A DNA stretch of 64,000 nt. It comes from an uncultured virus (IMG/VR IMGVR_UViG_3300029923_000016). Lineage: Duplodnaviria; Heunggongvirae; Uroviricota; Caudoviricetes. Every line of letters starts with the position of its first letter. Position 1 is the stretch's first letter. The notes under the pieces were generated by a model. It did no database searches. It worked only from the letters and a program-made list of their open reading frames with translations, and was not told the DNA's origin. This document shows, piece after piece, positions 7,960-59,370 of the stretch. The position numbers and the translations under genes were made by a program. The DNA is taken from IMG/VR virus record IMGVR_UViG_3300029923_000016; one strand, given 5' to 3'.

Positions 7960-8057
7960 TCGATGCGGTGCGATGCTATGCGTTGCGTTGCGCAGCATTG
8001 CGAAGCAAAGGTTACTTTAAAGTATCTAATCAAGCCTCGGTAAAACGAGGCTTTTTT
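7960..8057 (+). ncRNA. Putative non-contiguous guide RNA, array 1: (GCNNW)x9, palindrome, terminator
   Basis: GCGGT GCGAT GCTAT GCGTT GCGTT GCGCA GCATT GCGAA GCAAA at 7965-8009; TACTTTAAAGTA; terminal hairpin. Antisense to the late operon. Confidence 0.8.
8032..8057 (+). terminator. Rho-independent terminator
   Basis: AAGCCTCG-gtaaaa-CGAGGCTT followed by a T-run. Confidence 0.8.
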
Positions 8058-30395: not shown

Positions 30396-30608
30396 CTATC
30401 TCCTAAATGGCAATAGCCCGGGGCCGCCGGGAAAGATGCCGATACAATTGAGTACGGCAATCAGGACTAATAAGCCAAACAAGAGGCGGATGAGCATGAT
30501 AACGGGTGGTGGTAGGGGCAAGAACTGTGCCAGCAAGGTCTCGATAATGTACAGTACAATAAGTGCTACGATAATCCAGATGATGAGGTAGACCAAACAG
30601 CTAAGCAT
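30396..30608 (-). CDS. Small 2-TM membrane protein
   Basis: Two hydrophobic helices joined by PLPPP. Confidence 0.65.
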   Translation of the reverse strand: MLSCLVYLIIWIIVALIVLYIIETLLAQFLPLPPPVIMLIRLLFGLLVLIAVLNCIGIFPGGPGLLPFRR

Positions 30609-31281
30609 GACGATTTCCTTTAACGAAATTTAACTTGGCAGGGATAATCTGGAGATTGCTTGGAACGTGCAGTCCGGACACTTTCTTGCCTCGTAGTGGA
30701 ATGATGTGGTCAACATTGCATTGTACGCCAGTTAGGCGCGTGCGCAACTCTGAAAGTATGTAAATCTCTTCCATCATCCATAAGTCTAGTGGGGAAAGCC
30801 AAGTGGGGGTACGCTGTGCTTTAGCTATTTCTCGCAAGTTCTTTTTAGCTCTGACCTTACCAGGATTATTTTGGCGATATGCCCTAGCCGTAGCGGACAT
30901 ACGCGCTCGGTTATTGTCCCTCCATATAGCCGCGAGTTTTGAAATACGCTCAGTATTTGAGTAATACCAATTCCTACACATCGCTATATACTTTTCCTTA
31001 TTTGCCTCTCTCCAAGCCTGGCACCGAGCTAACTCCTTTTCGGGGTTTTCTTGTCGCCAGCGTTTATTATTGGCTAAGTCTATATCCTTCCTTTTTGCGT
31101 ATTGGGTTTTGCTATATTCTGCTACCTTATCCGGGTTAGCCCTACGCCACGCCAAGCTTCTGGCATATATCTCTGCTTTATGCTGTTCTCTATATCCTTT
31201 AGCCTGAGCAGCCAGCTTCTCTTTATTTGCGTAATAATACGCTCTTTGTTGTGCTTTTCTTTCTTCGTGTGTCAGTGCCAT
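30601..31281 (-). CDS. HNH homing endonuclease
   Basis: VDHIIPLRGKKVSGLHVPSNLQII; W...N repeats; sits between TerL and portal. Confidence 0.88.
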   Translation of the reverse strand: MALTHEERKAQQRAYYYANKEKLAAQAKGYREQHKAEIYARSLAWRRANPDKVAEYSKTQYAKRKDIDLANNKRWRQENPEKELARCQAWREANKEKYIAMCRNWYYSNTERISKLAAIWRDNNRARMSATARAYRQNNPGKVRAKKNLREIAKAQRTPTWLSPLDLWMMEEIYILSELRTRLTGVQCNVDHIIPLRGKKVSGLHVPSNLQIIPAKLNFVKGNRHA

Positions 31282-41171: not shown

Positions 41172-41792
41172 ATGAATAACGACGCAATCGAAGCCATAGC
41201 TTACGCCCAATGGACTCAGACCACCCCTCCCATCGGGGAAAATTTTCCAACCCACTATGGACGATTTATGAAATCAAGAGATGTATTGTACGGCAAGCAA
41301 GGTAAAAACGATGAGTGTTACACGCCGGACTACGCAGTAAAACCTATTATTCAATATATTCCGGAAGGGTCTATTGTATGGTGCCCGTTCGATACTGAGG
41401 CAAGTCAATTTGTTATTCAGTTAAAACAAGCGGGGTTTGAAGTAGTGTACTCGCATATAAGCCAAGGTCAAGACTTTTATAAATACGAGCCTAAAAAATG
41501 GGACATTATGATTTCCAACCCGCCTTTTACAGGGAAGCGCAAAATTTTTGAGCGCGCATTAAGTTTCAATAAGCCTTTTGCTTTAATCATGAGCAATACT
41601 TGGCTTAACGACGCCGCTCCAAAACAATTATTTAAGGATAAGGATTTACAATTGCTAATGTTTAATGAGCGCATGAAGTTTGATAATCAAGACAACTCGC
41701 AAAACAAAATTACTTTTAGCAGTAGTTATTATTGCTGGAACTTCCTACCTAAACAACTCATTATGGGGTCATTGAAAGATTATGGAAAATAG
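41172..41792 (+). CDS. Amino-methyltransferase (probably N6-adenine DNA MTase); alternative start at 41268
   Basis: DECYTP, VWCPFD, GQDF, ISNPPF motif IV; TTGACA-17 bp-TAGAAT promoter at 41039. Confidence 0.8.
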   Translation: MNNDAIEAIAYAQWTQTTPPIGENFPTHYGRFMKSRDVLYGKQGKNDECYTPDYAVKPIIQYIPEGSIVWCPFDTEASQFVIQLKQAGFEVVYSHISQGQDFYKYEPKKWDIMISNPPFTGKRKIFERALSFNKPFALIMSNTWLNDAAPKQLFKDKDLQLLMFNERMKFDNQDNSQNKITFSSSYYCWNFLPKQLIMGSLKDYGK

Positions 41793-42408
41793 TAATCCGT
41801 TCCGTCCTGGGACACAAGCACACCTGTTCTGTGAGATAGCACATGTTGATTACCTTACGGGATTTTCTGATATTGTAGAATTGCCCACACTTATTGCGGT
41901 CGGCCTGCAACAAGAGGTAGGCAGTAATGGAGGTAGCTGGTGCCGCTCCGATGGTGTACTCGGTTCCAAGTTTAACATCCATAGGCGGCTGGCAGGGGGC
42001 AGGATAGTGTCGGTACAGCTTGTCGGCTTTGCCAAGAATAATTTCACTAACAAAATTGATACTGCTATCATCGACGCTTACAAGAATGCTAATTGTAGAG
42101 TGTTGGCTATTAAAGGCAAGACTATCGAGATAGACCATAAAGATGGGCGCAAAGATGACTATAGCTTGCACGATAATCAAACATTGGATGATTTTCAGCC
42201 CTTACATAAGAGTGCTAATGTAGCCAAACGCCGACATTGTAATGTATGTAAAGAAACCAGAATACGCTTTGATGCAACTCGACTAGGATACAGTGTCCCA
42301 CAATACATAGGAACTACGCACTATACGGGCTCATGCGTGGGTTGTTATTGGTATGATATGGAGACATTCAACCGACATGTATCTGAGGACTATGTGAAAA
42401 TTAGGTAG
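41782..42408 (+). CDS. HNH-type restriction endonuclease, NlaIII/IceA1-like
   Basis: NGGSWCR, IEIDHKDGRK, DFQPL.K.AN..KR..C..CKET..R, C.GCYWYD; overlaps the MTase stop. Confidence 0.7.
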   Translation: MENSNPFRPGTQAHLFCEIAHVDYLTGFSDIVELPTLIAVGLQQEVGSNGGSWCRSDGVLGSKFNIHRRLAGGRIVSVQLVGFAKNNFTNKIDTAIIDAYKNANCRVLAIKGKTIEIDHKDGRKDDYSLHDNQTLDDFQPLHKSANVAKRRHCNVCKETRIRFDATRLGYSVPQYIGTTHYTGSCVGCYWYDMETFNRHVSEDYVKIR

Positions 42409-43583: not shown

Positions 43584-44468
43584 ATGTCAAACATAGTAAA
43601 TTTTAAAACACCTGTTTCCAATGTTGCTACCCTGTCATCAAGTGCGATGTTAGTAAACCTTACCGTTACACAGTGGACAGCGCGTAAGTTGGACAAGAAA
43701 GTGTCGGTCGATATTGATATCGAGAACAATACTACCACACGCTCAGGCAATTACAATAAAAATCTATTAGCCGGTGACTCGGCGCTGTCTAATTTACAGA
43801 AGCTGGGCAGTGCAGCACGGGCCTATCATAACAACGTCACCACGCCATGGTCTGATATGGGGCCCCGCCTGCTGCCGACAGCGTTATTCTTCGATTACAA
43901 AAAAGAGATGGCGCGCTTCGAGAAACTGTACACTCAAGAGGTCGAAGCGTTCCTGCTGGACTACCCGCATAAGATAGCCTATGCCCAGTACACCTTGGGC
44001 GACTTGTACAACCACGAGGATTATCCGACTTTGGAAAATATCCGGGGCAAGTTCGGCTTGACCGTAAGCTATATGCCACTGCCCGAAGTAGGGGATTTCA
44101 GATTGGACATCAATAACCAAGGCTTGCGGGAGTTGCAAGAGCAGTACCAAACCATGTATAATGACAGCCTCAGCAATGCGATGCAGTCTGTCTGGGACCG
44201 TCTGTATGACAGCCTGACCCGCTTGTCTAATGGCTTAAAGATTGAGGGCGGCAAACGTGGTATCATAGTAGGTAGCACGTTCGACGGAGCGAAGGAGCTA
44301 TGTACACTTCTAAGTCACTTAAACATAAACGGCGATACGAAATTGGAATCCATGCGCCAAGCGTTGGAGAGTGCCATGAATGGGCTTGATGTGACGGATG
44401 TTAGAAATTCAGATTACCAGCGCACTCTCCTCAAGTCTTCTGTAGATTCGATACTTGACAAGTTCTAG
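43584..44468 (+). CDS. DUF3150-like protein of the AAA/vWA module
   Basis: WTARKLDK, TTPWSD.GPRLLP, Y...DYP, LNINGD.KLE. Confidence 0.65.
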   Translation: MSNIVNFKTPVSNVATLSSSAMLVNLTVTQWTARKLDKKVSVDIDIENNTTTRSGNYNKNLLAGDSALSNLQKLGSAARAYHNNVTTPWSDMGPRLLPTALFFDYKKEMARFEKLYTQEVEAFLLDYPHKIAYAQYTLGDLYNHEDYPTLENIRGKFGLTVSYMPLPEVGDFRLDINNQGLRELQEQYQTMYNDSLSNAMQSVWDRLYDSLTRLSNGLKIEGGKRGIIVGSTFDGAKELCTLLSHLNINGDTKLESMRQALESAMNGLDVTDVRNSDYQRTLLKSSVDSILDKF

Positions 44469-44574: not shown

Positions 44575-45141
44575 ATGCTTACCCAAGAAATCCTAAAATA
44601 CCATTTGTCTTATGCTCCTGAAACCGGAGAGTTTGTCTGGATTAGGCCAAGAGCCAATTGGATGAAGCCGGGGAGTGTTGCTGGATTTACAGAGAAGAAG
44701 GGGTATCGAAGTATTATCTTATATGGCAAAACATATAAGCTGCATAGGATTGTCTGGCTTTATGTATACAACAAGTGGCCTCCATCTGATATCGACCATA
44801 TAAATGGTATCAAAGCTGATAATAGGTTGTGTAATCTTAGAGAGGCTACGCGTAGCCAAAATATAAGACATAGTGGTGTATATAAGAACAATATATCTGG
44901 GCATAAAGGTGTCTATTATCATGCCCGCCTAGATAAATGGGAGGCGCATATCCACTACAACAAAAAATTACGGTACTTAGGCGTATACCCTACGAAAGAA
45001 GAAGCAATAGCAGTGTATACGGCGTTCGCCGCTGCTATATGTAAAGAATTTCTCCATTCTAGTTTGGAGGGAGGTCTCGTTGGTGCCGATGCACCAGTAA
45101 TGAAACGGTCTCGTCGGTGCCGAAACACTGACAGTAAATAA
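44575..45141 (+). CDS. HNH homing endonuclease with AP2-like domain
   Basis: HRIVW, IDHINGIKADNRLCNLREAT..QN, SGHKGV...W.A.I...YLG.Y.T.EEA. Confidence 0.92.
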   Translation: MLTQEILKYHLSYAPETGEFVWIRPRANWMKPGSVAGFTEKKGYRSIILYGKTYKLHRIVWLYVYNKWPPSDIDHINGIKADNRLCNLREATRSQNIRHSGVYKNNISGHKGVYYHARLDKWEAHIHYNKKLRYLGVYPTKEEAIAVYTAFAAAICKEFLHSSLEGGLVGADAPVMKRSRRCRNTDSK

Positions 45142-46453: not shown

Positions 46454-47617
46454 ATGAGCTTATCAACAGCAGACAGAATAACTAAGCAACATATTTGGCT
46501 GATGGGGCACAAACCCACTATGCATTACTCAGGTATTGTTATGGTGGGCGACGTGGACATATCGGATGCGCTGCCCACGGCGGGCACCAATGGTCGTGAT
46601 GTAACTTATAATCCACAGTTCGTGGACTCTCTCACCGAGCAGCAACTGCGGGGCTTGGTGCTGCACGAGGCAGGGCACAAAGCTTACCAACATCTCTTTT
46701 TATGGCAAGAGCTGTACAAAGAGGATGCCAAGCTGGCGAACATGGCTTGTGATTATGTTATAAATCTTGAAATCTATGACCTTGACCCACGCGGGGTTGA
46801 GATAGCTCTGCCCCCTAACCCCTGCCTGGACGAGAAGTATCGGGGCATGGACACGAAACAGGTGTTTGAATTACTCAAGCAAGACAAAGCCAATGGGGGC
46901 CAAGGCGGCAAGGGCGAGCCGATGGACGACCATCAATGGGAAGACGCCCAAGCCTTGCCTGAAGAAGAGCGCCAAGCCTTGGCCAAGGAGATTGACAATG
47001 CCATACGCCAAGGCGTTTTTATGAGCGGAAAGCTCGGTGGCGATGTCTCCCGTGGCTTCAATGCCTTGCTGGAGCCTAAGGTCGACTGGCGCGACCAGCT
47101 CCGGGACTATGTAAGTACCGTAACAGCCGGTCGTGGGGACAGCACTTGGGCACGCCCTAACCGCCGTTTTATGGCCATGGACTTGTATTTACCCAGCCAA
47201 ATCAGTGAGTCTATTGGCAATATCGTCGTGGGTATCGACACGAGCGGCTCGATATCGGGCGAAGCCATCACTGCGGCGCTGTCTGAATTAGTTGGCATCT
47301 GTAATAACACCACGCCCGAACGAGTTGACCTTTTATATTGGGACACTCGCGTCGTTTCACATGAAACCTATTTCGAGGGCGACTATGAGAGCATTGCAAC
47401 GTCCACGAAACCTGCGGGTGGCGGCGGTTCGAGCTGCGTCGAAGTGTTCGAGTATATCAAAGACAACAAGCTCGACCCGTTAGTGTGTATCCACATTACT
47501 GATGGCTTCATTGAGTACCCGCAACTACCCCCCAACTATCCGGTGCTGTGGGTGATATGCAACGGTAGTGACCACCACCAACCGCCGTTCGGGAGCTTTA
47601 TCAGGGTGAAGCTGTGA
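46454..47617 (+). CDS. Metallopeptidase-like plus vWA (DUF2201-type) protein
   Basis: HEAGH; IDTSGS MIDAS; TDG. Confidence 0.85.
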   Translation: MSLSTADRITKQHIWLMGHKPTMHYSGIVMVGDVDISDALPTAGTNGRDVTYNPQFVDSLTEQQLRGLVLHEAGHKAYQHLFLWQELYKEDAKLANMACDYVINLEIYDLDPRGVEIALPPNPCLDEKYRGMDTKQVFELLKQDKANGGQGGKGEPMDDHQWEDAQALPEEERQALAKEIDNAIRQGVFMSGKLGGDVSRGFNALLEPKVDWRDQLRDYVSTVTAGRGDSTWARPNRRFMAMDLYLPSQISESIGNIVVGIDTSGSISGEAITAALSELVGICNNTTPERVDLLYWDTRVVSHETYFEGDYESIATSTKPAGGGGSSCVEVFEYIKDNKLDPLVCIHITDGFIEYPQLPPNYPVLWVICNGSDHHQPPFGSFIRVKL

Positions 47618-48623: not shown

Positions 48624-48822
48624 GTCCCTATTCTGCCACTTCGACGAAGCCCGGGGCATCTGCCTCGGCTGCTTCAGAACCCGCTATGACTTACGGCATT
48701 GGACGGGATATAACGATATTTTAAGGCAGAAAGTAATGATGCGTTCTTTTGAGCGCATGGATGATTTCTTTATTGTAAATGAGCAGTTCTTTAATCGAAA
48801 CCTTGACCATTACGACGGGTGA
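48592..48822 (+). CDS. DUF1289-like Cys-rich protein
   Basis: STPC...C.FD...ICLGCFRT..D...W. Confidence 0.65.
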   Translation: MATYRISTPCESLFCHFDEARGICLGCFRTRYDLRHWTGYNDILRQKVMMRSFERMDDFFIVNEQFFNRNLDHYDG

Positions 48823-48831
48823 GGGTATTAT
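48803..48831 (+). promoter_or_regulatory. Sigma70-like promoter for guide array 2
   Basis: TTGACC-17 bp-TATTAT. Confidence 0.75.
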
Positions 48832-48837
48832 ATGAAC

Positions 48838-48935
48838 CCTAAGCGCTGCCTTGCCCTGCTTAGCCTAGCTTAGCGATGCGCTGCAAAGCAAAGACTAATT
48901 AATTAGTGGTCTACACTCTCTGACGAGAGTGTTTT
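48838..48935 (+). ncRNA. Putative non-contiguous guide RNA, array 2: (GCNNW)x10 plus two hairpins
   Basis: Pentamers at 48843-48892; ACTAATTAATTAGT; ACACTCTC-tgac-GAGAGTGT. Confidence 0.8.
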
Positions 48936-48960
48936 CCAGTAACTAATTATAAGGTGTCTT

Positions 48961-49269
48961 ATGTCCTATTTAACGCCCGAAGGGCGAATCAAAAAGCAAA
49001 TCAAAGCTATACTGGCTGAGTATGGGGTATATTATTTCATGCCAGCGCCCGGGTTTACTTGTAAAGTAGGCGTTCCAGACTATATATGCTGCCTTAATGG
49101 GCATTTCATAGCCATCGAAGCCAAGGCCGGGCGCAAGCTGCCGACGCTGCTGCAACAACGTGAACTTGACTTAATCAACGCCGCAGGCGGCGTGGCTTTG
49201 GTGGTTAACGCCGACAACATACACGCTTTTCCCCTCATACTACAAGAGATAATGAAATGCAACTACTAA
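48961..49269 (+). CDS. VRR-NUC domain nuclease
   Basis: TPEG.IK..I...L, GVPDYI, FIAIEAKAG..PT.LQ. Confidence 0.88.
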   Translation: MSYLTPEGRIKKQIKAILAEYGVYYFMPAPGFTCKVGVPDYICCLNGHFIAIEAKAGRKLPTLLQQRELDLINAAGGVALVVNADNIHAFPLILQEIMKCNY

Positions 49270-52055
49270 CTCTGGACGCAGAAACTTTTTATGCAAAAGA
49301 TTATTCCCTAAGTAAGCTGACGACCGAGCAATATATAACAGATGACCGCTTCGAGGTTATCGGTGTATCCACCAAGATTAACAACGAGCCCGCACAATGG
49401 TTCTCCGGAACATTTGATGAGACGAAAGCATACCTAAACCAATTTGATTGGGATGATATTGCATTAGTAAACCACAATAGTCTATTCGACTCAAGCATCC
49501 TTGGCCTGCGCTTCGGTATCCACCCTAAGAAGCTCATCGACACGCTAAGTATGTCAAGAGCAATCCATGGCATCGAGGTCGGGGGCAGTCTGGCCAAGCT
49601 GGCTGAGCATTACCAGCTGGGTGTCAAGGGCACTGAGGTCATCAATGCCTTGGGTAAACGTAAACAAGACTTTACTACTGAAGAACTAGCGCGCTATGGT
49701 GAGTACTGCAAGAACGACACCGAGCTAACGTACAAATTGTTTTACAAACTACTGCCGCACTTTACTAAATCTGAATTAGACATTATTGATATCACCCTGA
49801 AGATGGCCACACGACCGTTGTTGGAATTGGATAAAGCCGTGCTGACCGCACACCTTGCCGACGTGCAAGCTAAAAAACAAGCGCTCATGGACAAGGTCAT
49901 TGTCTCTCGAAAAGAGCTGATGTCCAACGTCAAATTGGCGCAACTGCTGATAGACTGTGGCGTGGAGCCGCCAATGAAGCTGTCGCCGACTACCGGTAAG
50001 CCGGCCTATGCGTTCGCTAAAACAGACGAGGGCTTCAAAGCATTACTTGACTCTGATAACCTTATGGTACAAACTATTGTTGCTGCTCGGTTGGGTGTTA
50101 AATCAACGCTTGAAGAAACGCGATGTGAAAGGGTTATTGGCATTGCAGAAAGGAACAGGTGTTGTCCTTTCCCGCTGAAGTATTACAGTGCCGCGACAGG
50201 GCGCTGGGCGGGGGCAGATAAAATCAATGTCCAGAATTTCCCGCGTAAGTCGCCGTTAAAGCGAGCGTTCAAGGCCCCCGAGGGTTATGTTATTCTGGGC
50301 GCGGACTTAAAACAAATCGAACTGCGCGTGGGCCTCTGGCTGTCGTCGGAGTGGGAGAAACTGGATATCCTGGCAGGCGGGCTGGACTTGTATAAAGTCT
50401 TCGCCTCAGAGGTACTGGGTGTTGCCTATGATGAGGTCACAGAAGACCAGCGCTTTATTGCCAAGACCTCCTGTATCGCAGAAGGACAGCTTGTCCTTAC
50501 CCCAAGGGGTTTAGTGCCTATAGAAAACATTTTGGTAGACGATAGAGTATGGGATGGGGTAGAATGGGTCTCACATGATGGGGTCATTTACCAAGGGGAG
50601 AGAGATGTCATCACATACCAAGGACTTACAGCCACTACCGACCATATTATATTTACGCAAACTGGTGAGACCCGCCAGTTCGGGGATGCCGCCAATTTAT
50701 CAGCGCGTCTCGCTACTACCGGAGATGATAGGCGCCCGCTTAAATTCATGGGAGATAATCAGTACCGAGATACAACAAACAGTGAAATCGGGGAGCATAA
50801 AGATACATGTGCGCTGCGTTTGTGGCAGAGAGCAGTGGGCGTATGTAGAGGCCATTATCAGAGGGCAGTCCAGACGATGCAAGCCTTGTGCAACACGAAC
50901 TCGGCACCAAAGGCAAGGTCATCTGATTGTCTGGGACAAGGTTACGGAGCTTATACAAAAACGGGCAACAGCTATGCAACAAAGATGCTGCAATCCTATG
51001 GACAAAGGCTACGCCAATTACGGAGGACGAGGGATTCAGTTTTTGTTTGGCTCAACGAAAGAGTGTGTAGAGTATATCAAAACGTTGCCTCTCTGGGATT
51101 CCGGGTTGGAGGTGGACCGAATCGACAACAATGGACACTATGCAGTAGGGAACTTGCGTATGGTGTCCCGCAAGGTACAGACCAGCAATCGTCGAAATAC
51201 GATGTGGATTTCGTGGCGAGAGGAAATGCTTCTGGTAGCGGACTGGGCAGAATCCCCTTACGCACTGAGAGTAACCTGCAAGTATGTTCAGCAGGGTTTA
51301 ACGGGGGAACAAATTATCCAGACCGCATGGGACTCAGTGGCGAAGAAATGCAAGAATTGGCGGGGGATAAAAAGAAAGTTAGAGTCTATGACATATTAAA
51401 CGCCGGCCCTAGGCATCGCTTCACGGTGTCTAACGTGTTAGTCCATAACTGTCTGTCATTGGTTTTTGGGGTGGGCGCGGCGAAGCTGCAAGCGGCTATT
51501 CTCTCGGGTATAGGTTTGGATGTGGGCATCGTCGAAAGTAAACGGATAGTGGAATTTTACCGAGACAACCACCCCGGTGTGAGAGCAGCATGGTCGGCGT
51601 GTGGTAACGCTATTAAGTTATTAACCACAGGCGGTGAGGGGATGATACTAACCGATAATTTAATCAAGGTCGAAGGGCGCAAGGGTATCCGGCTACCGTC
51701 AGGACTGTATTTAAAATACCCTGAGCTACAGTATTCTGAAGATGCGCAGACCCGGAAGCGGGAATATAAATACAAAATTAGAAGCAGTTGGGATAGATTG
51801 TACAGCGGTAAGTGTTTTAACAATATTACTCAGGCAACTGCACGCTGTATCTTTGCTGAGGCGCTACCCAAAATCAATAAGCATTACCCTATTGTATTAT
51901 TGATTCACGACGCCGCCTATGTCCTGGTGCCGGAGGGGGGTGTAGAGGAGGCGAAGCAGATTTTAGAAGAAATCATGTGCCAGCCGCCGGACTGGATGCC
52001 GGATATTCCCTTGGAGGTTGAGTTTCATTATGGCCGAACTCTTTTCGATTGTTAG
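49257..52055 (+). CDS. Family A DNA polymerase with intein
   Basis: LTLDAET exonuclease motif, TGRW, ADLKQIELR (motif A), RFIAKTS/CLSLVFG (motif B, split by intein), IHD (motif C). Confidence 0.92.
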   Translation: MQLLTLDAETFYAKDYSLSKLTTEQYITDDRFEVIGVSTKINNEPAQWFSGTFDETKAYLNQFDWDDIALVNHNSLFDSSILGLRFGIHPKKLIDTLSMSRAIHGIEVGGSLAKLAEHYQLGVKGTEVINALGKRKQDFTTEELARYGEYCKNDTELTYKLFYKLLPHFTKSELDIIDITLKMATRPLLELDKAVLTAHLADVQAKKQALMDKVIVSRKELMSNVKLAQLLIDCGVEPPMKLSPTTGKPAYAFAKTDEGFKALLDSDNLMVQTIVAARLGVKSTLEETRCERVIGIAERNRCCPFPLKYYSAATGRWAGADKINVQNFPRKSPLKRAFKAPEGYVILGADLKQIELRVGLWLSSEWEKLDILAGGLDLYKVFASEVLGVAYDEVTEDQRFIAKTSCIAEGQLVLTPRGLVPIENILVDDRVWDGVEWVSHDGVIYQGERDVITYQGLTATTDHIIFTQTGETRQFGDAANLSARLATTGDDRRPLKFMGDNQYRDTTNSEIGEHKDTCALRLWQRAVGVCRGHYQRAVQTMQALCNTNSAPKARSSDCLGQGYGAYTKTGNSYATKMLQSYGQRLRQLRRTRDSVFVWLNERVCRVYQNVASLGFRVGGGPNRQQWTLCSRELAYGVPQGTDQQSSKYDVDFVARGNASGSGLGRIPLRTESNLQVCSAGFNGGTNYPDRMGLSGEEMQELAGDKKKVRVYDILNAGPRHRFTVSNVLVHNCLSLVFGVGAAKLQAAILSGIGLDVGIVESKRIVEFYRDNHPGVRAAWSACGNAIKLLTTGGEGMILTDNLIKVEGRKGIRLPSGLYLKYPELQYSEDAQTRKREYKYKIRSSWDRLYSGKCFNNITQATARCIFAEALPKINKHYPIVLLIHDAAYVLVPEGGVEEAKQILEEIMCQPPDWMPDIPLEVEFHYGRTLFDC
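50472..51449 (+). mobile_element. Intein in DNA polymerase motif B (326 aa, C1...HN|C+1)
   Basis: CIAEGQLVLT (block A), TATTDH (block B), VYDI...F..SNVLVHN (blocks F/G). Confidence 0.9.
50686..51399 (+). CDS. HNH-type homing endonuclease overprinted in the +1 frame of the polymerase intein (frame open from 50575)
   Basis: RCVCG, C..C, MQQRC.NP...YANYGGRGI, EVDRIDNNGHY.VGNLR.V....Q..NRR. Confidence 0.85.
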   Translation: MPPIYQRVSLLPEMIGARLNSWEIISTEIQQTVKSGSIKIHVRCVCGREQWAYVEAIIRGQSRRCKPCATRTRHQRQGHLIVWDKVTELIQKRATAMQQRCCNPMDKGYANYGGRGIQFLFGSTKECVEYIKTLPLWDSGLEVDRIDNNGHYAVGNLRMVSRKVQTSNRRNTMWISWREEMLLVADWAESPYALRVTCKYVQQGLTGEQIIQTAWDSVAKKCKNWRGIKRKLESMTY

Positions 52056-52174
52056 GCAGTGTCTGTATTGTTGGCTACACGGCTTTGGCATGAAAACTGG
52101 AGCGGAGATTTGGCTTAGACGCCAAGGCATCCGCGAAAATTCTAACTATCATTTAGGCTCACAGAGGCGACCAC

Positions 52175-52381
52175 GTGAATGAAATAGAGATTAGTTTTCA
52201 CAGTATTGAGTTAAGTATTTTTTATAATATCGACCCCAAGATTGGCTTGAATATTTTGTATATCTACCATTTCGATGAGGAAATCTCCTGTTATCTTAAT
52301 TTCTACGCGGTTTCGGAAATCAAACAGGCGATTTGGGAGCATCTCGATTCTCCTGATACTCTTTCAATAGCAAATCAATGA
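52175..52381 (+). CDS. Hypothetical AT-rich protein
   Basis: GAGG RBS, GTG start. Confidence 0.45.
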   Translation: MNEIEISFHSIELSIFYNIDPKIGLNILYIYHFDEEISCYLNFYAVSEIKQAIWEHLDSPDTLSIANQ

Positions 52382-52483
52382 GTTGTGTTAGGGGGAGTCC
52401 CAAATCTAATGATAGCTGCTTAAGGTTTTTGTGTGTCTGAACCTTAACCAGCAGAGAAACATATTTTTTATTCATATATAAGG

Positions 52484-52511
52484 TTGCGTATTAAATTAGG
52501 GGGTGTATAAT
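52484..52511 (+). promoter_or_regulatory. Sigma70-like promoter for the tandem guide locus (arrays 3-5)
   Basis: TTGCGT-16 bp-TATAAT with AT-rich upstream sequence. Confidence 0.6.
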
Positions 52512-52551
52512 ATTATATATGAAATTTATAGAGGGGGTTAATTTATGTGAG

Positions 52552-52691
52552 TCAAAGCTATGCAATGCTTAGCCGTGCACTGCGATGCTGAGCGATGCCG
52601 TGCCTAGCTATGCTCTGCGGAGCAATGCAAAGCCTAATTAATTAGGGTACTGAGTCTTCTCACGAGGGCTTAGTGCGGTAATTAATTTACC
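52552..52691 (+). ncRNA. Putative guide array 3: (GCNNW)x15 plus three hairpins
   Basis: Pentamers at 52557-52631; CCTAATTAATTAGG; 13-bp G-U-rich stem at 52647-52676; GGTAA..TTACC. Confidence 0.85.
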
Positions 52692-52798
52692 AAAGCGCTG
52701 CTGTGCCTTGCTATGCGAAGCCATGCGGAGCAATGCAAAGGCTATTTTAATAATAGCGTACTAGCCATTCCAACGAGTGGTTAGTGCGGTATTGTACC
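52692..52798 (+). ncRNA. Putative guide array 4: (GCNNW)x9 plus three hairpins
   Basis: Pentamers at 52695-52739; GCTATT..AATAGC; 13-bp stem at 52758-52787; GGTA..TACC. Confidence 0.85.
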
Positions 52799-52878
52799 AC
52801 TGCGATGCAGTGCGATGCCTTGCAGTGCCAAGCTTAGCATAGCACAGCGAAGCAAAGGCCGTGCCTTTTAGGCACGGC
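52799..52878 (+). ncRNA. Putative guide array 5: (GCNNW)x11 plus hairpin
   Basis: Pentamers at 52802-52856; GCCGTGCCT-ttt-AGGCACGGC. Confidence 0.82.
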
Positions 52879-52900
52879 ACCCTATTTTTAGGAGAATCAA

Positions 52901-53590
52901 ATGTCAAAAATGTTGCCGTGGAGTTATTCGGGGCTAAGCCAATTTCAAGTATGCCCGTTGCAATTCTACGAGCATCGCGTACGTAAAAGCGTACCGTTCA
53001 TAGAGACCGATGCGATTAAGTACGGCAAAGCCCTGCACAGCGCGGCGGAGTTTTACATCAAGTCCAACATGCCCTTGCCTGCCGAGTTTGCGTTCATGCA
53101 GAGCTACCTGGATAAGCTAATAGCGTTGCCGGGCAAAAAATATGTCGAGCTACAGATGGGCATAGCTATCAAAGATTGGGCGTTTGTCCATTGTGATTAC
53201 TGGGATTCAAGCTGCTGGTATCGGGGCGTCAGTGATTTTATTTCCGTTGACCACGATAATGAGAAAGCTTACCTGGTCGATTTTAAGACCGGTAAGAGTG
53301 CAGCCTATGCCGACACCACCCAGTTGGCATTACTGGCGGCGCTTATTTTTCTGCATTTCCCGAAGGTCAAAACGGTCAAAAGCATGCTGTTGTTCGTCAA
53401 GGCTGGACAAATTGTCAAAGCAGAGTATGATTTTGCCAGTCGGTTTACAGTGTTTGCGCATCTGAATCAGGACTTAAAACGCCTGAAAGCGGCGTACGAA
53501 AGTAACGTGTGGAATCCAACGCAGAACAATTTCTGCAAGCGCTGGTGTGCGGTACATACCTGTGTACATAACGGAGAATATAGTGAGTGA
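52901..53590 (+). CDS. Cas4-like PD-(D/E)XK exonuclease
   Basis: WSYS.L..F..CP, G..LH, RGVSD, VDFKTGK, QL, C.RWC....C. Confidence 0.88.
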   Translation: MSKMLPWSYSGLSQFQVCPLQFYEHRVRKSVPFIETDAIKYGKALHSAAEFYIKSNMPLPAEFAFMQSYLDKLIALPGKKYVELQMGIAIKDWAFVHCDYWDSSCWYRGVSDFISVDHDNEKAYLVDFKTGKSAAYADTTQLALLAALIFLHFPKVKTVKSMLLFVKAGQIVKAEYDFASRFTVFAHLNQDLKRLKAAYESNVWNPTQNNFCKRWCAVHTCVHNGEYSE

Positions 53591-54288: not shown

Positions 54289-54501
54289 ATGCAAATATCA
54301 ACCAAGTCAGTGATATCACTGGCAGAGGAAGCGGGGCTCCCGCCCTCTTTAATCGAGCGCCACACCGATGCTTTAACGCATTTTGCACTCCGCCTGCGCA
54401 TGGCAGAACGGCGCGTTTGTCGTAATAAGCTGCGCAACTGGACCATAGACAAGTCCCTGAGCAAGCCGCCGCTACTTGAGGCGCTGACGGAGCATGATTG
54501 A
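54289..54501 (+). CDS. Hypothetical protein
   Basis: GAGGA RBS, MQISTKSV. Confidence 0.55.
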   Translation: MQISTKSVISLAEEAGLPPSLIERHTDALTHFALRLRMAERRVCRNKLRNWTIDKSLSKPPLLEALTEHD

Positions 54502-57139
54502 GATAATACATGATAAGGTGTTATCCGTCACCACGGATAGCCCTGACGACATTACAACAGTAATAGACAAGTACAAGATAGACAATGGCAAAGTGCTCAT
54601 CCCCTTTAATCTGGGGAATGTTCACATATTAAAAAACATGGGCTTTACGGTACCGTCGCCCATTGAGACTCGGTATGGGTGGCCTGGACTCCATAAACCC
54701 TTTTCGCATCAGCGCAGTATCGCTTCGTTTTTGACCTTGAATAGGCGGGCGTATAACTTTGGCGAATTAGGAATTGGCAAAACGAAAAGCGCTATCTGGG
54801 CTGCCGACTACCTACTAAGTATAGGTGCTATACGGCGTGTATTGGTTATCGCGCCGCTTAGCATCCTCGATTCTGCATGGAAGCAGGAGATATTCAGGAC
54901 AGTGATGCATCGGTCTGTTGATGTGGCGCATGGCACAAAGGAGAAACGCGAGGCAATAATCAATAGTAAAGCTGAGTTTATACTTATCAATTATGATGGC
55001 GTCGAGATTGTGATTGACGCTTTGGACCGAGGTAACTTTGATTTAATCATAATTGATGAGTGCTTTGTAGCTGGGACACGAGTTCTTACGCCTATTGGTT
55101 TTAGAGCTATTGAACAAATCGTAGAAGGTGATATAATAGAGACAAGTTGGGGGCCAAGACCCGTAACCAAAACGTTTCATAAACAATCATCCAACATAGT
55201 TGAAGTCGAGTTTGAAGATGGTATCAAAATTACCTGCACAGAAGAGCACCCTTTCTCAACCCGAAATGGTTGGGTCGCCGCAAAAGACCTCCTTGGTGAA
55301 ATATGTACTACATCAAGAGAATTGTCACACCTGCGGGACGCCGTTCGAGCAGAAGGTGTTTGCCAACCAGAAGGCATCTCACTATTGTTCTCGCGCATGT
55401 TGGAAAGAGTCGTACTATGTAGATTTGGTGTGCGGGCATTGCGGAAAAAAGTATCGAAAGGTAAAGAGTTACTTAAGAACCAACCCTGCAAAATATTGCA
55501 GCACAAAATGTACGGCGCAAGCGCGCTCTGCAAAAGTTATGGGGGAGACAGTTATGTGTCCGGTCTGCGGAGGGGAGCATTTTGTACCCCACAGAGTGTT
55601 GCGGTATCGTCCAGCATTAACCTGTTCCCGTTCCTGCGCCAGAAAGTTAGTGTGGCAAACAGAGCGAAAGCGGATGATGGATGGCGTACAGAAAGCAGCG
55701 GAGAAGCATCGGGGCCAACCCTCACCTCTCAGGGGGATTCCCCATACAGAAGAGCGCAAGCAACAACAGCGTGCGCTGGCAGTAGAGTTGGGGAGTCGGG
55801 AACCGTTCATGCGAGTGCGGGGCGGCAATGGTACGGGTATGTCAAGAGTAGAGTTACTAATGCGCTCAATACTCCCAGAAAGTTTCCAATACAACTATAT
55901 TGTAAAGACATTACAAAAGCGTGGAAGCGGGTATCCCTATCACTACAAGCTGGATTTCGCAGACCCTTTACAGATGATTTGTTTAGAAGTAGACGGGTAC
56001 AGCCACAATACAATACAGCGTCAAGAACAAGACAGGAAGAAAGAGGCGTTGCTTCAGGACTTAGGGTGGTCAGTGTTACGCGTATCCAACAAGGATGTCC
56101 TCGCGATGTTTGGAATCTGGAAGTAGCGGGCCCTCATGATTATATCGTTGAGGATGTGCTAGTCCATAACTGCAACTACATAAAGAACGTCCAAACCCGC
56201 AAGCACAAGTTCATTAACAAGTTGATTAAAGCGGATACCTGGTGCTGGCTAATGACCGCTACACCGGCTGCGCAGAGCCCTTGTGATGCCTATGGTCTGG
56301 CGCGTATGATAGACCCTAAATCAGTGCCTCGGTCTTATGGTGCATTTAGGGAGATGGTGCAGTATAAAATCAATATGTTTATGTGGATAAATAAACCCGA
56401 TGCAGAGCGAACAGTACACAGAGTTTTACAACCCGCAATTAGATTTACTAAATCAGAATGTTTGGATTTACCTGAGCTATTATATGAGACGCGTGAAGTA
56501 CCTCTGACCGCACAGCAAAACAAGTATTACAAACTTCTAAAAAAGGAAATGATGATTCTCGCTGCGGGTACAACGGTCACTGCGGCGAACGCAGCGGTTC
56601 TGATTGGAAAGTTGTTGCAAATTTCAGCGGGCAACTGTTATGATGAACGTGGGGATATTATTGAGTTTGATATCTCCAACCGATTCAGAGAGCTGTGTGA
56701 TATCATCCGTGAGACGCGTAACAAAACGATAGTGTTTGTGCAGTTTAGGAACTCCATCGAGCGAATCATGCGGATGCTGCAGGATGAAGGCATTACTTGC
56801 GAGGCCATTCACGGGAAAATCCCCATGAATAAGCGGGATGTCATCTTCTCTGATTTCCAAAACAAACCCGACCCGCAAGTGTTAATCATCCAGCCGCAAG
56901 CTGCGGCACACGGTGTGACATTGACAAAAGCGGATACGACAATATGGTTCGGGGTACCCATGTCCTTTGAAATTTACCAACAAGGGAATGGGCGTACGCA
57001 CCGCGCCGGACAACGCAACCAATGTACTGTTGTCCATTTGATAGGTAGTGATGTTGAGAAGAAAGTATTGAACGCGTTGGACAAAAAGAATATGTCCGCA
57101 ACGACTCTATTGGCATTATTTAAAGAGGTAATAAAATGA
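54494..57139 (+). CDS. SNF2-like DNA helicase with intein
   Basis: GIGKT, IIIDE|C (Walker B split by intein), TATP, AHGVTLT, QGNGRTHR.GQ. Confidence 0.92.
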   Translation: MIEIIHDKVLSVTTDSPDDITTVIDKYKIDNGKVLIPFNLGNVHILKNMGFTVPSPIETRYGWPGLHKPFSHQRSIASFLTLNRRAYNFGELGIGKTKSAIWAADYLLSIGAIRRVLVIAPLSILDSAWKQEIFRTVMHRSVDVAHGTKEKREAIINSKAEFILINYDGVEIVIDALDRGNFDLIIIDECFVAGTRVLTPIGFRAIEQIVEGDIIETSWGPRPVTKTFHKQSSNIVEVEFEDGIKITCTEEHPFSTRNGWVAAKDLLGEICTTSRELSHLRDAVRAEGVCQPEGISLLFSRMLERVVLCRFGVRALRKKVSKGKELLKNQPCKILQHKMYGASALCKSYGGDSYVSGLRRGAFCTPQSVAVSSSINLFPFLRQKVSVANRAKADDGWRTESSGEASGPTLTSQGDSPYRRAQATTACAGSRVGESGTVHASAGRQWYGYVKSRVTNALNTPRKFPIQLYCKDITKAWKRVSLSLQAGFRRPFTDDLFRSRRVQPQYNTASRTRQEERGVASGLRVVSVTRIQQGCPRDVWNLEVAGPHDYIVEDVLVHNCNYIKNVQTRKHKFINKLIKADTWCWLMTATPAAQSPCDAYGLARMIDPKSVPRSYGAFREMVQYKINMFMWINKPDAERTVHRVLQPAIRFTKSECLDLPELLYETREVPLTAQQNKYYKLLKKEMMILAAGTTVTAANAAVLIGKLLQISAGNCYDERGDIIEFDISNRFRELCDIIRETRNKTIVFVQFRNSIERIMRMLQDEGITCEAIHGKIPMNKRDVIFSDFQNKPDPQVLIIQPQAAAHGVTLTKADTTIWFGVPMSFEIYQQGNGRTHRAGQRNQCTVVHLIGSDVEKKVLNALDKKNMSATTLLALFKEVIK
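55061..56170 (+). mobile_element. Intein in helicase Walker B (370 aa, C1...HN|C+1)
   Basis: CFVAGTRVLT (block A), ITCTEEHPF (block B), VWNLEV...Y...VLVHN (blocks F/G). Confidence 0.9.
55266..56126 (+). CDS. Zinc-finger plus Vsr/DUF559-like endonuclease overprinted in the +1 frame of the helicase intein (frame open from 55200)
   Basis: Three C..CG...CS..C repeats; YKLDFA...LEVDGYSH.....DRKKE..L..LGWSVLR. Confidence 0.85.
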   Translation: MVGSPQKTSLVKYVLHQENCHTCGTPFEQKVFANQKASHYCSRACWKESYYVDLVCGHCGKKYRKVKSYLRTNPAKYCSTKCTAQARSAKVMGETVMCPVCGGEHFVPHRVLRYRPALTCSRSCARKLVWQTERKRMMDGVQKAAEKHRGQPSPLRGIPHTEERKQQQRALAVELGSREPFMRVRGGNGTGMSRVELLMRSILPESFQYNYIVKTLQKRGSGYPYHYKLDFADPLQMICLEVDGYSHNTIQRQEQDRKKEALLQDLGWSVLRVSNKDVLAMFGIWK

Positions 57140-58271: not shown

Positions 58272-59249
58272 ATGAGCAACTTAAGCATATTTAAAAACGG
58301 CGGCGGCGTCCCTGCCCATCTTCAAAAAAGAGAGCTGTCTGCCGCCACCAAAGCCTTGATGGGTGGTTTTGAAAACCGCCGTATCTCTATCCGGGGCGGG
58401 GTCTTCCGCAAGGTCATCAATGGTCAGGAGGTGGGTTCCATCCCCGAACGGGCACTGAACGTGGTCATTGTTGGCGTCGCCGAGCATACTTCCCGGCAGT
58501 ATTACAAAGCCGCCTATCAGGAGAATGCCGACCCGGTGGCACCGGACTGCTACAGTGCTGACGGCATCACGCCGATGGCAACAGCGACGGCGATTCAAGC
58601 AGCCACCTGCGCCGCCTGTCCACAGAATATCGCAGGCTCAGGCCAAGGTGATTCCAAAGCCTGCCGCTTCCAACGCCGCATTGCGGTGGTCTTGGAGAAA
58701 AACCTGGAAGATGGTGAGGTTTATGAAATGACGCTGGCAGCGACCAGTCTGTTTGGTGGCAAGGGCAAGCCTGACCCCGACAAGATGGGCATGCGCCAGT
58801 ACGCCAACTTTTTGGGTGGTTACGGCGTCAACATCGACGCCGTGGTCACTGAATTGCGCTTTGATTTGGACGCCGCCACCCCGAAATTACTGTTCGCGGC
58901 ATTAAGACCGTTAGAGACGGATGAGCTGTTGCTGGTTGAGGAATATTCCAAATTGCCGGAGACTATCCAGGCTATCACATACAGCTTTGGTGGGGTGGTG
59001 GTGAAACCGGCGGCTGCCGAATTGCCCTTTATCCAGCCTCGCCCAGCTCCTGCCCCCGCAGCTGCGTCAGTGCCTGAGCCAGAGCCCGTCGTTCCGGCAC
59101 GCACAAGGGTCACTCGAAATCGCCCCGCCGCAGCCGCTGCGCCTGCCCCTGAAGTCATTCCGGAGCCGATACGCCGTGAAAGCCACGCCGCGCCGCAACC
59201 CGCCTCGACAAATATTGATGAGCTGCTATCGGAGTGGGGCGACGAGTGA
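58272..59249 (+). CDS. Putative ssDNA-binding/annealing (SSB-like) protein
   Basis: RISIRGG.FR, PDCYS.DG, C..CPQN..GS...KACR, Pro/Ala linker, acidic tail DELLSEWGDE. Confidence 0.65.
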   Translation: MSNLSIFKNGGGVPAHLQKRELSAATKALMGGFENRRISIRGGVFRKVINGQEVGSIPERALNVVIVGVAEHTSRQYYKAAYQENADPVAPDCYSADGITPMATATAIQAATCAACPQNIAGSGQGDSKACRFQRRIAVVLEKNLEDGEVYEMTLAATSLFGGKGKPDPDKMGMRQYANFLGGYGVNIDAVVTELRFDLDAATPKLLFAALRPLETDELLLVEEYSKLPETIQAITYSFGGVVVKPAAAELPFIQPRPAPAPAAASVPEPEPVVPARTRVTRNRPAAAAAPAPEVIPEPIRRESHAAPQPASTNIDELLSEWGDE

Positions 59250-59261: not shown

Positions 59262-59370
59262 TCCATAGCGATGCGATGCCTAGCCTAGCTTAGCGTTGCG
59301 ATGCGATGCTATGCAGTGCAAAGGCCACTTTAAAGTGGCAAGAACGAGCGGCTTAGGCCGCTCCTTTTTC
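59262..59370 (+). ncRNA. Putative guide array 6: (GCNNW)x11, palindrome, terminator
   Basis: Pentamers at 59268-59322; GCCACTTTAAAGTGGC; GAGCGGC-ttag-GCCGCTC plus T-run. Confidence 0.87.

Follow-up and report, generated by a model that had tools for sequence, protein, structure and literature searches.

Six VIPR-type guide arrays in a peat phage without a detectable vipr gene, and a possible link between one guide and the neighbouring DNA polymerase gene

Six pentamer arrays in the genome of an uncultured phage

The 64,000-nucleotide stretch analysed here (the window) belongs to an uncultured virus of the Caudoviricetes (IMG/VR record IMGVR_UViG_3300029923_000016) and has six arrays built of GC-NN-W pentamers, at four loci and all on the plus strand (Table 1). 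The sequence evidence presented below identifies these arrays as the guide RNAs (vrRNAs) of VIPR systems. One of them, array 3, lies downstream of the family A DNA polymerase gene of the phage and may well be aimed at rival alleles of that gene. The genome is circularly permuted and has ~71.7 kb, as seen in an IMG/VR record identical to the window; the 7705 bp missing from the window encode two minus-strand proteins of ~1801 and ~933 amino acids and were added to the window for searches of the whole genome. Five IMG/VR records show 100% identity in the genes they share, the array copies are identical in four other metagenome records, and 18 peat DNA runs contain the stretch.

The architecture of the arrays is very regular. 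The GC dinucleotide is invariant in all 66 units of the six arrays, the next two positions (NN) vary, the fifth is A or T, and this W is kept in all units except the 16th of array 3; arrays have 9-16 units. The units of array 3 are GCTAT GCAAT GCTTA GCCGT GCACT GCGAT GCTGA GCGAT GCCGT GCCTA GCTAT GCTCT GCGGA GCAAT GCAAA, and the 16th (GCCTA) opens the hairpin of its tail. GCAAA closes every array. The hairpin after it has a palindromic loop, which is ACTTTAAAGT in both arrays 1 and 6 and CTAATTAATTAG in both arrays 2 and 3. The GCAAA ending is common to all six arrays, and array 4 has the same last units as array 3 (GG-AA-AA); one or both of the closing units of array 3, decoded as Lys or Asn, may therefore belong to the scaffold and not to the guide.

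A -10-like hexamer, TATAAT or TATTAT, is found immediately 5' of arrays 1, 2, 3 and 6. Arrays 3, 4 and 5 are consecutive and look like parts of one transcript, which probably starts at the hexamer upstream of array 3 and ends at the hairpin and T run after array 5. This hexamer is absent from the list of a consensus promoter scan because its -35 element is weak. Array 1 runs opposite to the minus-strand structural module that surrounds it. The arrays were rejected as coding sequence, as they lack both a start codon and a ribosome-binding site, and stops interrupt all frames. Scans of the window for tRNAs and for Rfam families at the gathering threshold returned no hits. A hammerhead ribozyme between the guides was not found, neither in this Rfam scan of the window nor in an E-value search of 48700-53000, where the only match was PsrR1 (E 0.55).

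Table 1. Positions of the arrays and of the other features discussed in the text, numbered from the first letter of the window
Feature	Position	Strand	Description
Array 1	7965-8009	+	9 units; own -10-like element and terminator
Array 2	48843-48892	+	10 units; promoter-like site 48803-48831
Array 2 tail	48888-48953	+	weaker match to covariance model R1
102-amino-acid open reading frame	48961-49269		directly after array 2, overlapping the polymerase start
DNA polymerase gene	49257-52055	+	932 amino acids, family A; Pfam DNA_pol_A and exonuclease domains; intein at residues 406-731
Polymerase intein	50472-51449		CIAEGQ...VHN/C
Near-self site of array 3	51771-51815	+	in the resident polymerase; same peptide class, other codon families
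68-amino-acid open reading frame	52039-52381	+	between polymerase and array 3
51-amino-acid open reading frame	52320-52475	-	between polymerase and array 3; promoter-like site 52541-52512
TATAAT -10-like hexamer	52506-52511	+	upstream of arrays 3-5; putative promoter of a three-guide transcript, predicted from sequence
Array 3	52557-52631	+	15 units GC-NN-W (C-NN-W-G in the vrRNA register); putative guide part of a vrRNA
Array 3 tail	52627-52700	+	palindromic-loop hairpin, GTACT, second hairpin, TTAGTGCGG, third hairpin
Array 4	52695-52739	+	9 units; no match in the genome
Array 4 tail	52735-52807	+	match to covariance model R1
Array 5	52802-52856	+	11 units; no match found
Terminator-like hairpin and T run	52858-52888	+	stem 52858-52878, 9 pairs; predicted end of the array 3-5 transcript
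Cas4-like nuclease gene	52901-53590		PD-(D/E)XK; starts 12 bp past the T run after array 5
Intein in SNF2-type helicase	54494-57139		Hint and intein-splicing matches; DECFVAGT...VLVHNC
Near-self site of array 6	58920-58952	+	DELLLVEEYSK in the adjacent gene of 325 amino acids (58272-59249), just upstream of the array
Array 6	59268-59322	+	11 units; terminator 59346-59363
Selfish or defence-type genes	44575-45141, 46454-47617, 30601-31281, 41172-42408		see text

Membership in the VIPR family and the search for a vipr gene

According to the available text of the preprints cited here and below, VIPR systems combine a RAMP protein of ~20 kD, Vipr, with vrRNAs, in which a conserved 3' tail comes after 9-16 YNNGG repeats, with several guides in succession behind one promoter (bioRxiv 10.64898/2026.04.26.720920). 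The NN pairs read double-stranded DNA by a '1-nt skip', in which the skipped base is overwhelmingly the wobble base of a codon, and disturbing the NN pairing abolishes silencing; the Methods also give the alternative repeats NNNGG, YNNNG and NNNNG (10.64898/2026.04.26.720920). The protomers of Vipr keep the constant triplet hidden and expose the NN bases (bioRxiv 10.64898/2026.04.26.720927). The unit in the window, C-NN-W-G in the register of a vrRNA, has the YNNNG form and not the canonical YNNGG. Since it fits YNNNG, with NN read and the wobble skipped, the decoding used in the original prediction, which took each NN pair as the first two bases of a codon, is the published VIPR code. The in-frame peptide matches of arrays 3 and 6 described below fit the same rule. 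We rejected the idea that the W position codes for the wobble base, as it is unrelated to the third base of the target.

The arrays can be tied to Vipr by comparison with other contigs. The exact array pattern occurs at 104 loci in IMG/VR, a few of which are plain microsatellites, and a protein family of 190-260 amino acids (c1) is encoded within 3 kb of 43 of them; at 19 of the 104 a second family (c2) stands beside c1. The alignment of c1 folds with a pLDDT of 95.6, and the best matches of this predicted fold in the PDB are the backbone RAMPs Csm3/Cas7 (E 2e-5, probability 1.0, TM-score 0.4-0.5). A covariance model (R1) was built from 12 tails adjoining c1 genes in other contigs, none from this phage, and shows compensatory changes in 12 of its 18 pairs. 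In the window it matches the tails of array 4 (48.9 bits, E 6.1e-10) and array 3 (40.2 bits, E 7.9e-8), and weakly that of array 2 (16.9 bits, E 0.034); the tails of arrays 1, 5 and 6 are reduced to the first hairpin and a terminator. Judged from these sequence comparisons, the six arrays are vrRNAs, and the original reading of array 3 as a guide is supported.

The likeness to published VIPR extends to the tandem pentamers with two hypervariable bases, the number of units, the structured 3' tail, the phage-borne location, the succession of guides downstream of a shared promoter and the single skipped base on the codon wobble (10.64898/2026.04.26.720920). The differences lie in the constant part, W-G-C here and G-G-Y in canonical VIPR, in the tail, with three hairpins here and a pseudoknot in the VIPR of SUSP1, and in the lack of a detected vipr or vap gene in this genome. 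The comparison can be carried to the Cas7/Csm3 filaments of class 1 CRISPR systems, given the predicted Csm3/Cas7-like fold of the c1 proteins beside homologous arrays, the periodic reading of the guide and the flipped bases. However, guide and target here have periods of 5 and 3, instead of 6 and 6, and there are neither repeat-spacer arrays nor cas genes.

We failed to identify a gene for Vipr. Neither c1 nor c2 was found in the window (hmmsearch E > 0.7, hhalign probability at most 2.5%), and the missing 7705 bp encode no c1; the searches for c2 covered the vap accessory gene. The c1 family was not found in four records of this phage or in a distant relative either, and the same query detected it in 20 of 20 VIPR-bearing records used as a control. 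The Cas4-like nuclease gene 3' of array 5 is a common gene of replication modules. As the genome has no detectable c1-family gene, we regard the arrays as solo guides that would depend on a Vipr made by another element sharing the cell. L003-like Vipr genes are found in assemblies of Dechloromonas, Methylomarinum, Methylotenera, Rhodoferax, Acidovorax and Burkholderiaceae, and the guides of eight loci with such genes in metagenome-assembled genomes (MAGs) of bacteria (Dechloromonas, Methylomarinum, Methylotenera, Rhodoferax, Acidovorax and others) have no match on this phage.

Solo guides as such are already in print. The available text of a third preprint describes solo vrRNAs in satellites and in 346 VIPR-null phages of the SUSP1 family, which borrow Vipr from another element and target vipr, rival vrRNA loci, satellites and host repeats, with self scores below rival scores (bioRxiv 10.64898/2026.10.15.759431). 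The phage studied here resembles them in having guides without the protein gene, lower self scores and a presumably borrowed Vipr. In contrast, the phages of that study are enterobacterial and have one or two guides at the site of the deleted vipr-vap1 genes, whereas this peat phage has six guides at four loci. Its guides also differ in that no match to vipr or vrRNA loci was found for them and that two of them mirror the phage's own replication genes. When the guides of the window were compared with 1.77 Mb of other loci, including 20 VIPR loci, nothing exceeded the shuffled controls, and the same was true of 115 foreign guides searched against this genome. Exact NNx patterns (NN followed by any base) of arrays 5 and 6 had no match in IMG/VR; the single exact match of array 2 lies outside the coding frame and was judged to be due to chance.

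The arrays could also be relics, decaying or idle since the loss of vipr and vap, in which case the likeness between array 3 and the polymerase would record a past target. This would be in line with the absence of vipr from the whole genome, with the lack of any target of at least 80% match for arrays 1, 2, 4 and 5 in the 1.77 Mb of related loci or in the exact scans of IMG/VR, and with the lack of RNA contigs over the arrays. It fits poorly with the perfect GC and nearly perfect W of the units, the high scores of the best tails, the intact promoter-like and terminator-like signals, the identical copies in other metagenomes and the functional solo vrRNAs documented in other phages and satellites (10.64898/2026.10.15.759431). 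We consider decay of the arrays unlikely.

Near-self matches of arrays 3 and 6

The peptide spelled by array 3 resembles a segment of the resident polymerase. This segment, TAC AAA ATT AGA AGC AGT TGG GAT AGA TTG TAC AGC GGT AAG TGT, encodes YKIRSSWDRLYSGKC and lies 740 bp from the array. When the NN pairs are read as codon positions 1 and 2, 11 of the 15 residues are compatible with it and 7 dinucleotides are identical. None of 1000 shuffles of the order of the units reached 11 residues in the six frames of the ~71.7-kb genome, where they ranged from 6 to 10. The number of matching bases under the NNx rule is 19/30, an ordinary value among 200 shuffles (mean best 18.9, maximum 21). Hence, array 3 resembles the site by the peptide that is encoded and not by its bases, and the published code does not predict the resident allele as a target of this guide. 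The sequence WDRLY, the core of the array 3 peptide, also occurs in a protein of 294 amino acids (43584-44468), but the complete guide agrees with no more than 5 of 15 residues of that protein and this candidate was put down to chance.

Guide and resident gene use different codons for the residues they share. At the Arg, Arg, Leu and Ser positions, all of them six-fold degenerate, the guide has CG, CG, CT and TC, whereas the polymerase has AGA, AGA, TTG and AGC. The minority families account for 22% (Arg, AGR), 40% (Leu, TTR) and 37% (Ser, AGY) of use genome-wide, and the joint probability that the resident gene has the minority family at all four sites is ~0.007 given the usage of the genome and ~0.02 given that of the polymerase gene. 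The NN series, the counts of compatible residues and exact dinucleotides, and the opposite codon families were all part of the original prediction, and we reproduced each of them exactly.

A second guide behaves in the same way. Array 6 decodes to 11 of 11 residues of a site in the gene just upstream of it, with 8 of 11 NN pairs exact, and 0/1000 of its shuffles reach 11 residues (maximum 8). Its base score at this site, 18/22, is inside the range of the shuffles, and three of the four six-fold families (two Leu, one Ser) are switched. The site is not conserved in the distant relative, which has a homologue of the 325-amino-acid protein with 41% identity. For arrays 1, 2, 4 and 5, no site in the genome scores better than chance.

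We then surveyed other VIPR loci for such near-self sites, using ±3-kb loci and then 16 whole VIPR-bearing contigs (873 kb), which contain 32 arrays with 8-20 units each. Self matches at 8 of 8 residues were found for two more arrays, in two independent viral contigs, and 1 in 1000 shuffles reached this value in each case. The first site, 498 bp from its array, belongs to the exonuclease domain encoded by a D5-like primase gene; 45 bp separate the end of this gene from the array that follows it, and the sole mismatch is an Arg (CG in the guide, AGG in the gene). The second lies 95 bp from its array, at the end of a portal gene, and the sole mismatch is a Ser (TC and AGT). Their base scores are 15/16 and 14/16 nucleotides. 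Thus, the four near-self sites are all 95-740 bp from their own array, none has a perfect base match, and 9 of their 13 six-fold sites are switched, which by our own binomial estimate has p ~0.03 against an expectation of 40%.

The proximity of all four sites would also be expected if near-self guides regulated the genes next to them, a partial match giving weak binding of Vipr and a tuned expression of polymerase or replication genes. Partially matching crRNA-like RNAs act as regulators in some CRISPR systems, and in the two VIPR-positive contigs guide and gene differ by a single dinucleotide. On the other hand, this phage has no vipr gene, the base match of array 3 to its own site is at chance level, and each mismatch at a conserved residue is a switch of codon family, which looks like avoidance. 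The effect of disturbed NN pairing speaks against such regulation too, and the available text of the VIPR preprint reports no self hits with an NN match of at least 80% in the clades tested (bioRxiv 10.64898/2026.04.26.720920). We hold such regulation in cis to be very improbable.

What array 3 may be aimed at

The reading that we favour, although we rate it at little better than an even chance, is that array 3 forms the guide portion of an orphan (solo) VIPR RNA that is aimed at rival alleles of the polymerase, and that the resident allele has been recoded and is thereby immune. The codons of related polymerases fit this reading. The site could be placed in 45 of 80 polymerase loci of IMG/VR that are 48-61% identical, and none of these 45 has a pentamer array within 2.5 kb. 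Such array-free relatives are mostly in the codon families of the guide, with CGN at the first Arg (R4) in 29/38, CGN at the second (R9) in 16/21 and CTN at the Leu (L10) in 6/6, and the resident gene is in the other family. This comparison of codon use, suggested along with the original prediction, came out in its favour and fits a recoding of the resident allele that takes it out of reach of the guide.

Several observations weigh against a polymerase target. The suggested pattern search among homologues did not bear it out: the exact NNx pattern of array 3 has no match in IMG/VR, and none of 120 listed homologous proteins decodes better than the resident, the best (P0008) being a tie at 11/16 residues. 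Among the 45 placed loci the best score is 21/30 nucleotides with 8/15 NN (four loci, YKLRNGYDRLYGGKL), compared with 19/30 and 7/15 for the resident, and none reaches an 80% match. With these results, the sampled data come close to the outcome that the original prediction named as its refutation, namely no homologue matching better than the resident allele. Units 5 and 6 of the guide (Thr, Asp/Glu) fit no polymerase homologue seen. As 4 of the 15 residues of array 3 are incompatible with the resident polymerase as well, the link between the two is only statistical. No RAMP of the c1 family was detected in the ~71.7-kb genome, a search that a RAMP too divergent for comparison of profiles would escape. 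RNA contigs of three metatranscriptomes (Logan contigs) cover only 52039-52372 and 52827-52977 in this region and give no transcript evidence for the arrays, a result that speaks neither for nor against their expression. A near-self site is found for only 2 of the 32 arrays of the 16 whole VIPR-bearing contigs, and the overall excess of switched codon families is modest. Finally, the sole exact 11-unit matches of array 3 are in a family of portal genes, not in a polymerase.

These last matches suggest a different target, namely the HK97-type portal gene of high-GC phages or prophages at RIRTDWERLYSGN, the resemblance to the polymerase being coincidental or historical. The 10-unit core of array 3 has two exact matches in metagenomes and two in IMG/VR, all four in frame and in sense within one portal family (Pfam Phage_portal, E 3e-83); with unit 14, which matches too, units 4-14 reach 11/15 NN and 24/30 nucleotides, i.e. 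the 80% threshold of the VIPR preprint (10.64898/2026.04.26.720920). Three distinct portal alleles, 81-82% identical in DNA, differ at wobble bases and keep the match, which looks like what a real VIPR target would show, and about 0.1 in-frame matches are expected by chance over both collections by our own estimate from codon frequencies. However, the match was found after about five patterns had been tried, and, being homologous, the matches count as one independent event. Units 1-3 and 15 of the guide mismatch the site, and the portal contigs have 64-67% GC, compared with 49.7% in this phage. A host shared by this phage and the portal-bearing phages is unsupported, given that the nearest named phage infects Rhodobacter. 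A portal target would also leave unexplained the far stronger amino-acid match close to array 3 and its parallel in array 6. We regard the portal gene as an unlikely target.

Taken together, the claim of the original prediction that the guide targets the polymerase gene of a relative is partly supported. It was right in kind, in that the array is a wobble-skipping guide under a code since published and the resident gene is not its predicted target, and it is unproven for the polymerase of a relative, of which no clearly better-matching homologue was found. A search of GenBank phage DNA with the polymerase-array region returned only polymerase matches of 174 bp in Streptococcus phages, and a search for loci with the C-terminus of the polymerase returned identical records only.

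The genes around the arrays include several that are typical of selfish elements or of defence. Both the polymerase and an SNF2-type helicase contain an intein (Table 1). The open reading frame directly after array 2 matches the middle of the PHROG 'endonuclease' family phrog_93 (E 9e-14) and may be what is left of a homing endonuclease gene next to a guide cassette. The set of selfish or defence-type genes in Table 1 comprises an HNH-AP2 endonuclease, a DUF2201 protein (labelled HNH in PHROGs), an endonuclease VII-like gene, and a methyltransferase fragment adjoining an IceA-like nuclease. In the spacer between polymerase and array 3, the more upstream of the two RNA-covered stretches comes from RNA-library contigs of two peat metatranscriptomes. 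The distant relative (locus L054) has a homologue of the Cas4-like nuclease (36% identical) and an array, and no Vipr in its 19-kb contig. Four other VIPR loci of IMG/VR (L008, L044, L061 and L076) have very long or back-to-back arrays in which GCAGG-type junctions replace the hairpin tails, and these may correspond to the 'staggered' architecture of the preprint.

A polymerase-directed guide could work as follows. In the VIPR preprints, Vipr protomers polymerise on the pentamer repeats (10.64898/2026.04.26.720920, 10.64898/2026.04.26.720927), and the filament binds double-stranded DNA, reading the non-target strand as NN-x-NN-x with the wobble skipped, which silences transcription (10.64898/2026.04.26.720920). 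In this phage, W-G-C would be the constant bases hidden by a Vipr supplied by another element, and each NN pair would be presented. Array 3 would then spell a conserved peptide of the active-site region of family A polymerases, YK.R..WDRLYSGK, in its common codon families. The resident polymerase would escape through its AGA, AGA, TTG and AGC codons together with three residue changes, since a switch of Arg, Leu or Ser family would be the only synonymous escape visible to a code that skips the wobble. The guide would be aimed at rival alleles of the essential gene next to it, and its linkage to the recoded and immune resident allele would be under selection. The free-standing homing endonucleases of T-even phages, known for marker exclusion, offer a parallel: a weapon that attacks a rival allele is encoded next to the resident copy of that gene, which is linked to it and differs enough in sequence to be protected. 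By analogy the arrangements are alike, but here a putative RNA guide that directs a DNA-binding silencer would take the place of the nuclease.

More generally, and more tentatively, some vrRNAs might be 'allele-drive' cassettes, in which a guide stands beside an essential gene (polymerase, primase/exonuclease or portal) and is written in the codon families of rivals, the resident gene having escaped by a switch of family; in this phage the cassette would lack its own Vipr. We find this generalisation doubtful rather than probable. The preprints stress the skipping of the wobble as a block to synonymous escape (10.64898/2026.04.26.720920, 10.64898/2026.04.26.720927, 10.64898/2026.10.15.759431). 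Six-fold-degenerate codons are not discussed in the available text of two of them (10.64898/2026.04.26.720920, 10.64898/2026.10.15.759431), where the words sixfold, six-fold, arginine and leucine have no occurrence.

With the code published in 2026 in these preprints, most of the novelty of the decoding is gone. Six solo guides of the WGC type in a non-enterobacterial, VIPR-null phage widen the 'guns for hire' idea, and the remaining interest lies in guides that mirror neighbouring essential genes whose resident copies are in the opposite Arg, Leu and Ser families. If the allele-drive idea is true, a guide of this kind would silence rival alleles in mixed infections and spread together with the immune allele, as free-standing homing endonucleases do, and the choice of codon family at six-fold sites would preserve a legible trace of VIPR conflict. 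Should the pattern hold, self/non-self discrimination and earlier pressure from VIPR could both be tested for simply from sequence.

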